Under the pieces are notes generated by a model. That model was not told the DNA's origin. It did not search any database and worked only from the letters and a program-made list of their open reading frames with translations. A stretch of 64,000 nucleotides of DNA, taken from the IMG/VR virus record IMGVR_UViG_3300049988_000124, positions 1-64,000 of that record. One strand, given 5' to 3'. Shown here in pieces: positions 5,678 through 9,061 of the stretch. The translations under genes and the position numbers were made by a program. Numbering within the stretch: the stretch's first letter is position 1; each line of letters opens with the position of its first letter. This DNA comes from a virus. Lineage: Duplodnaviria > Caudoviricetes.

Positions 5678-6361
5678 TTAGTCAGCCAGCGATGTCGAGA
5701 TAATCTTACCGGGACTGCGCGGCGGCTCACCCTTCGGGAGACGATCGATTACCTCCATCCCTTCGACGACCCTCCCCCACACCGTGTACTGGCGGTCGAG
5801 GAAGCGTGCATCCTCGAAGCAGATAAAGAACTGACTGTTTGCACTATTGGGATCATTCGTCCTTGCCATCGAGCATGTTCCGCGCACGTGCTCCTCGTTC
5901 GAGAACTCCTGCTTCAGGTCCGGCTTGGTTGAACCACCGGTGCCGTCCTTGTTACCGCCGTCACCACCTTGCGCCATGAAGCCGGGGATGACGCGGTGGA
6001 AAGGAACACCGTCGTAGAAACCTTCGCTCGCCAGTTCCGTGATACGTTCTACGTGATTGGGAGCAAGATCAGGATGCAGTTCGATGGTCACGGGTTCCAC
6101 TTCATTGTCGTTGATCGTCGCGATATTCAGAACCAGAAAGCGCGGCTTCGACGTTGGGTTGAGGGCACGGTTCAGACGACGATCGAGGATTGCGAGATAC
6201 TCTTCCATCGGCTTAACCTGCCGCCGCAGATCGTAGCTGTCCGAGGCACCGAGTTCCTTGAACTTATCGGTATCGATGAACGCCTTCAGCTTAGTGAGAC
6301 GATCGTTGAGCTGCTCGCGCTCTTCCTGAACGCGCTGGATATGTGCGGGTACGTCAGCCAT
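5678..6361 (-). CDS. Cyclophilin-type peptidyl-prolyl isomerase with N-terminal coiled-coil (crAss001_48-like) domain
   Basis: Cyclophilin motifs FYDGVPFHRVIPGFMAQGGD, SMAR, SANSQFFI, LDRQYTVWGRV. Start moved to ATG 6361 (MADVPAH) because of SD AAAGGA. Confidence 0.9.
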   Translation of the reverse strand: MADVPAHIQRVQEEREQLNDRLTKLKAFIDTDKFKELGASDSYDLRRQVKPMEEYLAILDRRLNRALNPTSKPRFLVLNIATINDNEVEPVTIELHPDLAPNHVERITELASEGFYDGVPFHRVIPGFMAQGGDGGNKDGTGGSTKPDLKQEFSNEEHVRGTCSMARTNDPNSANSQFFICFEDARFLDRQYTVWGRVVEGMEVIDRLPKGEPPRSPGKIISTSLAD

Positions 6362-6377
6362 TGATAATTCCTTTCGT

Positions 6378-6611
6378 TTAAGTCCAAGGAACATGAGAGC
6401 GAGAGACGAGGTTTCCACCCCGTCCCTTTACTGCTGCAATTCCGTGTGATGAATATTGAACGCGCTCGGTCTGGTTACGTCTACCTCGGGGACGAGAAGT
6501 TGTCTTCTTCCGCACACCGGTATAGCGACCATCCTTACAATCCGTGATGAGAACCGTCTCACCGTCTTCATTCAAATACGTGGTCATTGTCTCGATGTGT
6601 GAAAGAGGCAT
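6378..6611 (-). CDS. Hypothetical protein
   Basis: 77-aa ORF packed in the minus-strand operon. Confidence 0.5.
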   Translation of the reverse strand: MPLSHIETMTTYLNEDGETVLITDCKDGRYTGVRKKTTSRPRGRRNQTERVQYSSHGIAAVKGRGGNLVSRSHVPWT

Positions 6612-6625
6612 GGGTTAGTTTCCCA

Positions 6626-6892
6626 TCATATCGTCGGATTGTAGTCGTTCACCACGCAGGTACCGGTGACGTAGTCCTGATGGATATTACCCTGATCATC
6701 CTGGATACGCACGGTTAGGCCTACGTCATCGTTGTTCATGACCTTGACGTGATCCTTGCGGTAGTAGGTCTGACCGAGTGATGTCTTGCACGTTATCGTG
6801 CTACCGTACTCTTGACCGATTATCCGAGGACCACACGCGGTTGCGGTTCCCAGTACACAGCAGAGCACTAAGAGTTTGAAAGAGGTTCTCAC
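6626..6892 (-). CDS. Putative lipoprotein
   Basis: MRTSFKLLVLCCVLGTATA-C: basic N-terminus, hydrophobic stretch, lipobox-like Cys. Confidence 0.6.
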   Translation of the reverse strand: MRTSFKLLVLCCVLGTATACGPRIIGQEYGSTITCKTSLGQTYYRKDHVKVMNNDDVGLTVRIQDDQGNIHQDYVTGTCVVNDYNPTI

Positions 6893-7269
6893 TCGAAAAC
6901 TACTCCTGCTTCCCTGATGATAGAGGCTCGAAACATACCTAGAAGTCGATGAATCTCAGCCACCTGCATAGTTGGGTCACCAGAGCCCATGACGATTTCA
7001 TTGGCGAGAGCTTCTTCCACGGTCCGGAATGGTAGTTTGAGCTTCCCACGAACGTGCTCTTCCACGATAGTGATTTGTGGATCGATCTTCTTCAAGATCT
7101 CGGAGCGATTGTTGTAAGCTTCCCGCAAGCTTTCCTCAGACTGAAGATCATCGTTGCGATACTTGGCAGTCACTCCGTGATCCTGGAGTGCCTTCTCGAT
7201 GATCATACCGATGACACCTTTACCGGTACACGGAAGACCGGATACAGTGACGGTGAGTTCATTTGCCAT
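6889..7269 (-). CDS. Hypothetical protein
   Basis: 126-aa ORF with 4-nt overlap with the next gene and SD AGGA. Confidence 0.6.
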   Translation of the reverse strand: MANELTVTVSGLPCTGKGVIGMIIEKALQDHGVTAKYRNDDLQSEESLREAYNNRSEILKKIDPQITIVEEHVRGKLKLPFRTVEEALANEIVMGSGDPTMQVAEIHRLLGMFRASIIREAGVVFE

Positions 7270-7290
7270 GAGCTATCCTTTTCTTGTCAA

Positions 7291-7342
7291 TGGTGCCCCC
7301 GGTCGGACTCGAACCGACACTCCAGAGGAAGGAGATTTTAAG
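7291..7342 (-). pseudogene. 3' half of interrupted tRNA-Leu(UAA) (anticodon loop to CCA)
   Basis: Minus strand reads CTTAAAA TCTCC-variable arm-GTCGG TTCGAGT CCGAC CGGGGGC ACCA. The acceptor 3' strand is complementary to GCCCCCG at 7963-7969. Confidence 0.85.
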
Positions 7343-7805
7343 GTATGTCCCAAGATCGAAACTCTACTACAACTTGCCCACTGTGGCTATCGACACTGTA
7401 GGTGGTCTCATGGCGAGTGATGTTCTTAGATACCAACCCTGCACATTCTTTAGAACATACCGGACCCGTCCTTCCCTGGTTCCAACAGTGCTTGACATCT
7501 TTCATCAGTTTGGTTGTCGGATTTTTGCAAACGGGACAAATGAAAGAGTAGGTCTCTGCTTCTCGACCAAGTTGAGCTTTTTCAGAATTCTCAACTCTGG
7601 AGAGCACCTGTAGATTGTTAGGATCGTCGTTGGTAAGATCCTCATCGACATGGTCGCAAGTCTCATCACCAACTAGTTCTCTACCAAGCTTTTGCTCAAG
7701 AAGATGTTTGGGATATGACTTGGTTTGCATTCTACCATCGTCGTGTTTAATAACGACGTGCTGTCTACCGTCTTTGCGATAGTACGGTCCATAGATCTTA
7801 GTCAT
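7338..7805 (-). CDS. HNH homing endonuclease (HNH_3-like) with C-terminal Cys zinc finger
   Basis: DHVDEDLTNDDPNNLQVLSRVENS is the HNH motif. CPVC...CSKEC follows. The stop TAA coincides with the outer tRNA anticodon. Confidence 0.9.
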   Translation of the reverse strand: MTKIYGPYYRKDGRQHVVIKHDDGRMQTKSYPKHLLEQKLGRELVGDETCDHVDEDLTNDDPNNLQVLSRVENSEKAQLGREAETYSFICPVCKNPTTKLMKDVKHCWNQGRTGPVCSKECAGLVSKNITRHETTYSVDSHSGQVVVEFRSWDIP

Positions 7806-7940
7806 ACTCTACGACTCGCGAAAATGGTGGGCATGGTCGGATTCGAACCGACGATGTGATCATTAATCCGTGACCGATTTTAAGTCGGATGCGTTTCAAC
7901 CATCTTCGCCACATGCCCTCAAAGAGTTGTAGAGTATGAC
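7801..7940. repeat. 17-bp inverted repeat (16/17) enclosing the complete tRNA-Leu
   Basis: gtcatactctacgactc (7801-7817) versus gagttgtagagtatgac (7924-7940). Confidence 0.9.
7825..7918 (-). tRNA. trnL: tRNA-Leu(UAA), complete, long variable arm, encoded CCA
   Basis: Acceptor GGGCATG/CATGCCC; D-arm GCG...CGC; CCGA-CTTAAAA-TCGG; T-arm GTCGG TTCGAAT CCGAC; ACCA end. Confidence 0.92.
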
Positions 7941-7969
7941 CCAGCGCCTACCAATTACGCCACGGGGGC
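7941..7969 (-). pseudogene. 5' half of interrupted tRNA-Leu
   Basis: GCCCCCG TG GCGTAATTGGTAGGCGC TGG: acceptor 5' strand and a Leu-type D-arm. It pairs perfectly with CGGGGGC of the 3' half about 600 nt downstream. Confidence 0.85.
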
Positions 7970-7976
7970 ATCTGAC

Positions 7977-8369
7977 TCACTCTTCGCTAGCATTCTCGAG
8001 GGCTTTATGTCCCATGACTTCTGCTAGCTTAGTGTAAGCAGCTCGTTGCTCTTCTGACCAGACCACGCCCTCAGCAAAAGCCGTCAGTATCTCAGTAACG
8101 GTGTTCTTGGGGAGAAGAACCACTTCTTCCTGGCTGTTGACGAGTTCATTGGAAACAGTTGGACCGAACTTGTTCCTGACAATCACACCACCAACCAGAA
8201 CAAGGTGCGAGGTGAAAAGTGCTTTCCCGTCAGTGAACGCGTTATATTCGTCAGCGTTCTTGAAGTGAAGGACCTTGACATCCTTGGCGAACTGGTCGCC
8301 CAGAAGTTTACCCAAGGTCATCTCTTCGTCGCGGGAGTGTTCGATTTCAAGTTCATGAAACTTTGGCAT
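7977..8369 (-). CDS. Hypothetical protein
   Basis: 130-aa ORF with SD AAGGA. Confidence 0.6.
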   Translation of the reverse strand: MPKFHELEIEHSRDEEMTLGKLLGDQFAKDVKVLHFKNADEYNAFTDGKALFTSHLVLVGGVIVRNKFGPTVSNELVNSQEEVVLLPKNTVTEILTAFAEGVVWSEEQRAAYTKLAEVMGHKALENASEE

Positions 8370-8386
8370 ACGTTATCCTTTCTCTA

Positions 8387-8995
8387 TCACCCCCGAGGGA
8401 GATCAATGGCAGTGGGATCACGATCAGTCTTATCCAAGACGTGCTTGAGATAATCACGCGTACGCCGGATGGCGTAGAGATCATCGTCGCTCAGCTCTGG
8501 ATCATCACTGTAGATAATCGCACTGGTCTGGAAACGACCTTCCTCGTCCATGGATGCGCCGACATCCTCGCACGTGAAGTTATCGTTCAATCGCCCAAAG
8601 ACATCCTCGGGCAGAGTGTTGGGATCGTAGCCGAAGCCTTCGAAGCGACCCTCCATGATTCCCTGGCGGATCGGGGCAAAGGTGGCAATCGCCATCTCCA
8701 TGCACAGCGGAATGCTGCGCAGATCCTCGATCGATTCCAATGCTCGGAAGTAATCAGGATTAAGGAGGGCGTTGACGGTGCTGCGGATCTCATGGGCGAC
8801 CTGATCCACAGGCTGTACGTAGCGCATGAAGAACTCATTGCGCCGCTGGTCGAACTCGCTGCCGAAAATACTGGCGTGTCCCAGATCGTTGATCTGGCTA
8901 AACACGTCGCTGCTCACTCGGCTACCCAAGAGGGAACCGAGCGTGGGCATCATGCTTCCCGGGCTAAGAGTGATGGTGTCGTGAATGCGGGCCAC
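8387..8995 (-). CDS. Conserved phiKZ-like core hypothetical protein
   Basis: 202-aa ORF with SD AAGGA. Lies in the chimallin/RNAP block as in related phages (from memory). Confidence 0.6.
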   Translation of the reverse strand: MARIHDTITLSPGSMMPTLGSLLGSRVSSDVFSQINDLGHASIFGSEFDQRRNEFFMRYVQPVDQVAHEIRSTVNALLNPDYFRALESIEDLRSIPLCMEMAIATFAPIRQGIMEGRFEGFGYDPNTLPEDVFGRLNDNFTCEDVGASMDEEGRFQTSAIIYSDDPELSDDDLYAIRRTRDYLKHVLDKTDRDPTAIDLPRG

Positions 8996-9061
8996 GCTAG
9001 TTTGTCCTTCGGTATACGGGGTAGGTCTCCTATCATCGTCTCTCCCGAGACAAGAATAGTT

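Follow-up and report, generated by a model that had tools for sequence, protein, structure and literature searches.

An HNH endonuclease gene and a second tRNA-Leu(UAA) within a split tRNA-Leu(UAA) gene of a jumbo phage

Described homing systems and the locus compared

Three pathways of homing have been described, namely intron homing, collaborative homing and intronless homing (PMC3984707). Here we analyzed a transfer RNA (tRNA) locus in the first 64 kb of the phage record IMGVR_UViG_3300049988_000124 (307.8 kb, rated complete in IMG/VR), and this whole stretch of 64,000 nucleotides is referred to as the window. On its minus strand a tRNA-Leu(UAA) gene, designated gene A, is split by a 598-bp insert containing a complete second tRNA-Leu(UAA), designated tRNA B, and the gene of an HNH endonuclease. 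By analogy with the described pathways, the cassette would fit intronless homing, and those of its relatives that bear introns would fit collaborative homing.

Collaborative (trans) homing pairs a group I intron lacking an open reading frame (ORF) with a neighboring free-standing endonuclease (PMC3984707). A similar arrangement occurs on three contigs carrying homologous loci (L027, L032 and L025), where a tRNA-Leu(UAA) with an ORF-less intron in the anticodon loop lies beside an endonuclease gene, a layout that would be expected if the intron shields the gene from the neighboring enzyme. The window cassette, in contrast, is intronless, and its protection, if any, would have to come from the divergence of tRNA B. 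Splicing intron elements of the tRNA-Leu anticodon arm occupy the same gene at nearly the same site, so that a homing enzyme aimed at the anticodon region of a tRNA is not without precedent; however, they leave the tRNA functional, whereas the window insert lacks a ribozyme and three nucleotides of the target are missing.

SegB of phages T4 and T6 is a free-standing GIY-YIG homing endonuclease encoded in a tRNA cluster, which recognizes the T-psi-C motif and promotes the inheritance of its own gene along with that of neighboring tRNA genes (PMC2330249), and its homologues are statistically associated with tRNA genes with no isotype preference (PMC13096335). The window enzyme resembles SegB in being a free-standing phage endonuclease tied to tRNA genes. 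However, SegB belongs to a different endonuclease family and sits between tRNA genes without splitting any of them, whereas the HNH gene lies inside a split tRNA gene, and its family shows a preference that SegB homologues do not, being located beside a UAA tRNA in 10/10 cases.

By analogy, the closest known logic appears to be that of fungal mitochondrial endonuclease ORFs, which insert into atp6, atp9, cox2 or nad3, supply a substitute C-terminus of foreign origin and turn the native one into a relic, as in Allomyces macrogynus atp6 and in Glomus (PMC3630166). In both cases the target is disrupted, a divergent substitute is supplied and the native piece is left dead, a likeness of logic alone and not of common descent; in the window, tRNA B lies inside the insert and both halves of gene A flank it. 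The fungal elements differ in that they affect protein genes, replace only the 3′ end in frame, encode LAGLIDADG or GIY-YIG enzymes and reside in mitochondria, whereas the window cassette supplies a whole RNA gene, leaves both halves of the target in place and is found in a phage. Our literature search returned no description of an endonuclease cassette that interrupts a phage tRNA gene and supplies an entire tRNA in its place. We regard the split-tRNA cassette as a novel form of free-standing homing.

The interrupted gene and its empty allele

All the features of the locus lie on the minus strand. The 5′ part of gene A (7941-7969) comprises the acceptor strand GCCCCCG, UG, a Leu-type D arm and then U26, G27 and G28, and the 3′ part (7291-7342) comprises the loop CTTAAAA, the strand TCTCC, a 4-bp variable arm, the T arm, the acceptor strand CGGGGGC, A73 and CCA. 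The insert (7343-7940) contains in this order the 5′ arm of a 17-bp stem with one mismatch (7924-7940), tRNA B (7825-7918), the 3′ arm of the same stem (7801-7817) and the HNH gene (7338-7805), whose TAA stop codon (7340-7338) coincides with the anticodon of gene A. A preliminary description, made from the window alone, had recognized two tRNA halves, a complete tRNA and an HNH gene at this locus; all four parts are present with the right coordinates and strand, and the acceptor strands said to pair across the insert do so at 7/7 positions. The 25-nt 3′ end of gene A was found exactly in tRNA genes of 9 IMG/VR phage contigs, and its 5′ pattern is shared by more than 120 tRNA-Leu genes of bacteria, most of them Alphaproteobacteria, all with the canonical class II layout. 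These matches and the acceptor pairing therefore show that the outer pieces belong to a single tRNA-Leu gene of host type. A search of metagenome contigs with the exact 26-nt sequence of the 5′ half gave no match.

The runs containing the stretch are leaf metagenomes, and Logan contigs from four runs (X1-X4) were placed on window positions 6300-9000. X1 and X2 cover the occupied form of the window itself, which probably originated from them, and X3 contains pieces of the cassette at 100% identity. An uninterrupted gene A, which the preliminary description had anticipated in related phages, was found on a 408-nt contig of X4, originating from a different study, which covers 7241-7342 and 7941-8242 with 4 differences and has flanks about 99% identical to the window. 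This contig skips 598 nt and joins 7342 to 7941 through TCT on the plus strand, corresponding to AGA on the tRNA strand, and the boundaries of its joint (7941/7342) are exactly those of the window insert, demonstrating a presence/absence polymorphism of the cassette between close relatives at the same site. A second joint, 6652 to 7855 in X2, was supported by a 151-nt contig with a depth of 2.2 and 7-10 mismatches on each side, and was set aside as a tRNA-like sequence from another organism.

The three nucleotides at the X4 joint complete gene A. The UCUCC strand alone predicts a missing strand of the form GG[A/G]G[A/G], and AGA yields GGAGA; the joined form reads ...CGC-U-GGAGA-CUUAAAA-UCUCC... 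with a perfect anticodon stem. The rebuilt gene of 84 nt was identified as tRNA-Leu(taa) by ARAGORN and its minimum free energy (MFE) structure is a cloverleaf at -35.2 kcal/mol, with the long variable arm, UAA anticodon and A73 of a class II tRNA-Leu(UAA). The occupied locus supplies only GGG followed by unrelated bases, and AGA, corresponding to tRNA positions 29-31, is replaced by the insert and absent from both junctions. Since AGA is not templated at the occupied locus, the X4 joint represents a DNA allele and not a spliced RNA, and since it was lost from the locus, no excision or splicing can restore gene A. The earlier suggestion that gene A is probably dead was thus strengthened: gene A is a dead relic of a recent and precise interruption, and tRNA B, the one tRNA-Leu among the 9 tRNA genes detected by ARAGORN in the whole genome, is now the only tRNA-Leu of the phage.

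We then considered the nature of the insert, for which the preliminary description had seen no room for a group I or II catalytic core. A permissive Rfam scan (E<=10) of the region 7000-8300 gave no Intron_gpI or group II match and no intron model spanning the insert, returning only tRNA B, a weak tRNA-like hit on the 3′ part of gene A and noise. In L025, L027 and L032, group I introns were recognized with this library at 57-67 bits, exceeding the gathering score, and the method would therefore have caught a core in the window. The covariance model thus detected no P3-P9 catalytic core. Only about 40 nt of the insert lie outside tRNA B and the ORF. The hallmarks of group I introns are a U before the 5′ splice site and a G as the final intron base; here the exon contributes G instead of U to the 5′ junction, and the insert ends in C instead of G. 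Whatever junction was chosen, the ligated exons formed at best 3/5 pairs of the anticodon stem and never 5 bp. Out of 1750 in silico joins of gene A, 627 were called "tRNA" by ARAGORN, a result that stems from the good acceptor, D and T arms and is uninformative on the splice junction.

The preliminary description had also considered the insert to be bounded by a 10-nt repeat. Both copies exist, TGGGTCATAC at 7934-7943 and TGGGACATAC at 7343-7352, but they are not a duplication marking the ends of the insert. With one mismatch allowed, this 10-mer shows 7 matches in the window against 3.2 expected, a borderline excess over chance. Copy 1 consists of U26-G27-G28 of gene A followed by the first seven bases of the insert (G-TCATAC), which belong to the stem arm pairing with the HNH start region, and copy 2 (7352-7343) is coding sequence for the conserved W-[D/E]-I, here W-D-I, in the C-terminal tail of the HNH protein. 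We therefore rejected a target-site duplication, as the target lost three bases and copy 2 is HNH coding sequence. A long-range pairing between 7940-7927 and 7369-7352, possible by eye, was not used in the MFE and centroid structures, which favor the local 17-bp stem, and could not restore gene A.

The HNH family and its tRNA partners

The HNH gene has its own start and stop codons and encodes a protein of 155 amino acids, which matched PHROG 14913 "HNH endonuclease" at 3e-19 and Pfam HNH_3 at E=0.0019, the latter below the cut-off of that family. Alignment with 14 homologues showed that every invariant residue is kept, including ETCDH...NLQ.L.R..N..K and four cysteines. The AlphaFold model (predicted local distance difference test score, pLDDT, 86) found its best structural match in I-HmuI (PDB 1U3E) over residues 1-81, with a Z score of 7.7 and a root-mean-square deviation of 2.8 Å for 79 residues at 16% identity, followed in the ranking by I-PpoI and then by other HNH domains. 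I-HmuI was also the top row of a Foldseek search against PDB (probability 0.94, E 0.11), in which no row reached E<=0.001, and a profile search of PDB sequences gave weak zinc-finger matches only. I-HmuI is an intron-encoded HNH nicking endonuclease of Bacillus phage SPO1; the two enzymes share their fold over residues 1-81 and differ in that the window HNH is free-standing. The C-terminal half, with the four-cysteine motif and the tail, is unmatched by I-HmuI. The protein looks like an intact homing-type enzyme, and the combination of an intact domain, a location outside any self-splicing intron or intein and a presence/absence polymorphism is that expected of a free-standing homing endonuclease.

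A large protein collection contained 41 homologues of the HNH protein, nine of which, picked by the length of their contigs, were looked up. In all ten distinct proteins examined, i.e., that of the window and these nine homologues (48-68% identity), the gene adjoins a tRNA with a UAA anticodon (10/10). The preliminary description had proposed searching for the same architecture elsewhere, and the relatives indeed showed HNH-tRNA(UAA) linkage, orphan halves and nested cassettes. In L026 (HNH 65% identical) an orphan tRNA-Leu 5′ half is followed by a spacer, a B-type tRNA and the HNH gene, with no 3′ half. In L030 (57%) the HNH gene is preceded by an orphan 5′ half and then by a B-type tRNA enclosed in a 16-bp inverted repeat. 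L028 and L029 (58%) are related to the window phage, with neighboring proteins 57% and 70% identical, and show the order B-type tRNA, HNH and orphan tRNA-Leu 3′ half, with no matching 5′ strand on the contig; as in the window, the HNH stop codon is the anticodon TAA, and the remainder of the 3′ half is unlike that of the window. The right junction is therefore common to two lineages with different 3′ halves, and the orphan 5′ halves of three lineages (window, L026 and L030) each break off close to where the D stem gives way to the anticodon stem.

In L027 (68%) and L032 (53%) a collapsed B-type remnant precedes an inverted repeat around a tRNA-Leu(UAA) bearing a 214-nt group I intron between U34 and A35, followed by the HNH gene. 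The remnant is a 38-nt "mini-helix" (L027:466-503 and L032:2139-2176), in which a CAC microhomology links the 5′ acceptor strand and D arm to the 3′ end of the acceptor with its CCA. L025 belongs to the same phage as L026 and shows 1168 bp in place of 123 bp, with most of tRNA B gone, a left flank of 99.9% identity that reaches the middle of the orphan half and a right flank of 92.9% identity. Within the new segment, an inverted repeat and an intron-bearing tRNA-Leu(UAA) are accompanied by a second HNH gene, of the HNH_3 type (258 amino acids), on the opposite strand, and the crossover points of the segment fall in conserved D-loop and T-loop tRNA segments. The difference between L025 and L026 captures a later, nested invasion of the same kind, and the 92.9% right flank is as would be expected from co-conversion; L025, L026 and L032 provide further examples of presence/absence.

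The three intron-bearing genes (L027:514-811, L032:2188-2485 and L025:1825-2127) have introns of 214-218 nt at U34/A35, the cyanobacterial position, here in phages and beside a free-standing HNH gene, and their joined exons are identified as tRNA-Leu(taa) by ARAGORN. Another group I intron (L028:325-687; Rfam 53.1 bits) lies elsewhere on its contig. In L034 the HNH gene follows a 78-nt tRNA(UAA) within a tRNA array. In L160 (1501-1945) the HNH ORF extends across the 5′ half of a 76-nt tRNA(UAA) that is itself intact and stops at the anticodon TAA, and in L158 and L162 the HNH stop codon lies at tRNA positions 8-10. UAA-anticodon tRNAs of 75-78 nt with a short variable loop, i.e., of class I shape, also occur at L016:1208-1284, L019:3107-3183, L021:2979-3055, L023:2800-2876, L024:8232-8308 and L034:2451-2528, often beside a normal class II tRNA-Leu(UAA).

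tRNA B is a 94-nt tRNA-Leu(UAA) with a long conserved variable arm (ARAGORN; Rfam 57.3 bits), divergent from gene A although the anticodon is UAA in both. Comparison of seven B-type genes, from the window, L026, L028, L030, L035, L036 and Aeromonas phage AP1, revealed compensatory changes in 13/25 pairs. Since covariation of this extent backs the class II cloverleaf, tRNA B represents a real and functional phage tRNA lineage. The 21-nt variable region, CACGGATTAATGATCACATCG (window 7851-7871), is identical in 6/7 genes and differs only in AP1, remaining invariant in L026, L028, L030, L035 and L036 despite their diverged stems, which points to sequence-specific recognition by some protein. In L035 (7359-7910) and L036 (minus strand, downstream of 2509) the B-type tRNA-Leu is followed by unrelated endonuclease-like ORFs, that of L035 being a classical HNH, and the B-type tRNA may thus be a hot spot for several endonuclease families.

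The stem enclosing tRNA B (7940-7924/7817-7801) is complementary at 16/17 positions, a value equaled in 0/300 shuffled sequences, and the 151-nt segment around tRNA B folds with z = -5.3. The HNH start codon (7805-7803) lies within the 3′ arm. Unrelated but equally significant inverted repeats surround the tRNA in L030 (17/18, with a perfect 16-bp core), in L027 and L032 (10-12 bp) and in the second cassette of L025; none was found flanking the tRNA in L026, L028, L034 or L035.

Proposed mechanism, alternatives and setting

Taken together, these data make it probable that a ribozyme-less cassette, made up of the HNH gene and a spare tRNA-Leu(UAA), invaded a resident tRNA-Leu(UAA) gene of host-like type within the 5′ strand of the anticodon stem. 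The idea of a selfish cassette bringing its own tRNA, already put forward in the preliminary description, is supported by the empty site of X4, the lack of any intron model and the family-wide link between HNH and tRNA(UAA). According to the proposed mechanism, the enzyme would nick or cut the intact tRNA(UAA) genes of co-infecting relatives in or near the anticodon arm, and repair would then copy the cassette as one unit, with the short conserved tRNA segments on either side possibly serving as homology. The spare tRNA would make destruction of the target neutral with no need for splicing and would itself escape cleavage; in the intron-bearing relatives, the intron would protect the donor. 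The 17-bp stem probably couples HNH translation, through sequestration of the start codon, to processing of the tRNA precursor.

Several observations weigh against this scheme. The target of the HNH enzyme is putative, and the immunity of tRNA B is assumed. As the GACTTAAAATC segment around the anticodon is identical in A and B, discrimination between them must lie outside the loop, and would depend on the stem or the variable arms, which differ greatly. In three distant homologues (L158, L160 and L162; 48-54%) the HNH gene lies just upstream of an intact 75-76-nt tRNA(UAA), with the ORF entering its 5′ part, and tRNA destruction is thus not universal in the family. Aeromonas T4-like phages such as AP1 possess B-type tRNAs but not this HNH, and these tRNAs may be cargo with a selective value of their own. 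The left junctions are non-homologous between loci, leaving the left boundary of the cassette undefined, and the empty allele is known from one Logan contig with a depth of 3.5, from a run of unrecorded library type.

A broader proposal, for which we consider the chances evenly balanced, is that this lineage of HNH genes has specialized in parasitizing tRNA(UAA) genes and needs no splicing to home. It would cut the anticodon arm, use a spare or intron-protected tRNA for both immunity and compensation, and exploit tRNA relics as homology arms; its serial invasions would accumulate tRNA-Leu fragments in nested "graveyards" and carry tRNA genes from one phage to other, unrelated ones. Bringing a replacement gene, as at this locus, would be a third way for a homing element to render an insertion into an essential gene harmless, besides RNA splicing in introns and protein splicing in inteins. 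Homing of this type would explain the occurrence of tRNA fragments and duplicated isoacceptors in phage tRNA regions and the spread of tRNA genes between phages. The matched pair of empty and occupied alleles makes the target site of a new I-HmuI-like enzyme directly testable, and the cyanobacterial-type tRNA-Leu(UAA) group I introns placed in phages beside a free-standing endonuclease offer a natural system for studying the origins of cooperation between introns and endonucleases.

Among the alternatives, the one that survives best, although we regard it as rather unlikely, holds that tRNA B is a selected cargo whose variable arm evades a tRNA-cleaving defense of the host, with the HNH enzyme mainly spreading or amplifying tRNA B, as SegB does with tRNA-Tyr, and the loss of gene A being a side effect. 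The invariance of the 21-nt variable region while the stems covary would agree with this explanation, as would the presence of B-type tRNAs in Aeromonas T4-like phages lacking this HNH and, in L035 and L036, beside unrelated endonuclease genes. SegB amplifies a tRNA gene against Septu, which cuts the variable loop (PMC13096335). However, no defense system targeting tRNA-Leu was identified here, and UUA accounts for just 2.2% of the Leu codons of the phage. This explanation is compatible with the invasion of gene A by a selfish cassette and shifts the reason for the persistence of the cassette.

It is improbable that the halves of gene A were retained for a function, either as a tRNA-like fold directing RNase P/Z processing or as selected homology arms. 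The acceptor stem and T arm are perfect, CCA is encoded, both elements form in the MFE and centroid folds of the 685-nt locus (z = -3.7), and the L025 crossovers lie in conserved D-loop and T-loop segments, but a recent insertion, with flanks about 99% identical to the empty allele, explains the perfect state equally well, and the relatives have lost one half or the other. Very improbable is also a one-off illegitimate recombination by which a tRNA and an HNH gene without tRNA-Leu specificity landed in gene A by accident. The loss of three nucleotides with no clean duplication, as in non-homologous repair, and the variable left junctions are in line with such an event, whereas the 10/10 association with tRNA(UAA), the identical right junction (stop codon = anticodon) in two lineages with different 3′ halves and the shared end region of the orphan 5′ halves in three lineages are contrary to it. 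Finally, the possibility that the insert is an intron, self-splicing or removed by proteins, and gene A a functional split gene restored in RNA is close to refuted, since its location in the anticodon arm, 2-3 nt away from where group I introns classically sit in cyanobacteria, the group I introns of relatives and the acceptor stem and T arm formed in the predicted folds are outweighed by the missing core in an insert with about 40 nt to spare, the G and C junction bases, the loss of AGA with a stem of 3/5 pairs at best and the retention of just one of the two tRNA halves in relatives.

As regards the genomic setting of the invaded gene, the window contains genes for a phiKZ-type split RNA polymerase beta subunit, a DNA polymerase and a major head protein, which identify the virus as a jumbo phage. 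The RNA polymerase beta relatives in IMG/VR are just 20-25% identical and were not used, and an IMG/VR pattern search with the flanking ORFs (7977-8369 and 6889-7269) and the HNH gene returned no relatives. The guanine-cytosine content of the insert (45.8%) is about 6 points lower than that of the genome (52.2%). Jumbo phages of the phiKZ-like kind use their own RNA polymerases. Scans returned no sigma-70 promoter and one terminator, neither count exceeding that of shuffled sequences.

Further observations concern neighboring genes. At 5678-6418 the window encodes a cyclophilin-type domain fused to an N-terminal domain of unknown function (phrog_774), and in L028 a gene for a cyclophilin of 156 amino acids lies directly upstream of the tRNA cassette, showing that the gene order around the locus is rearranged. 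Outside the window, a permuted tmRNA-like gene was detected by ARAGORN (G000:C1:302824-303274) beside the main tRNA cluster of the phage.

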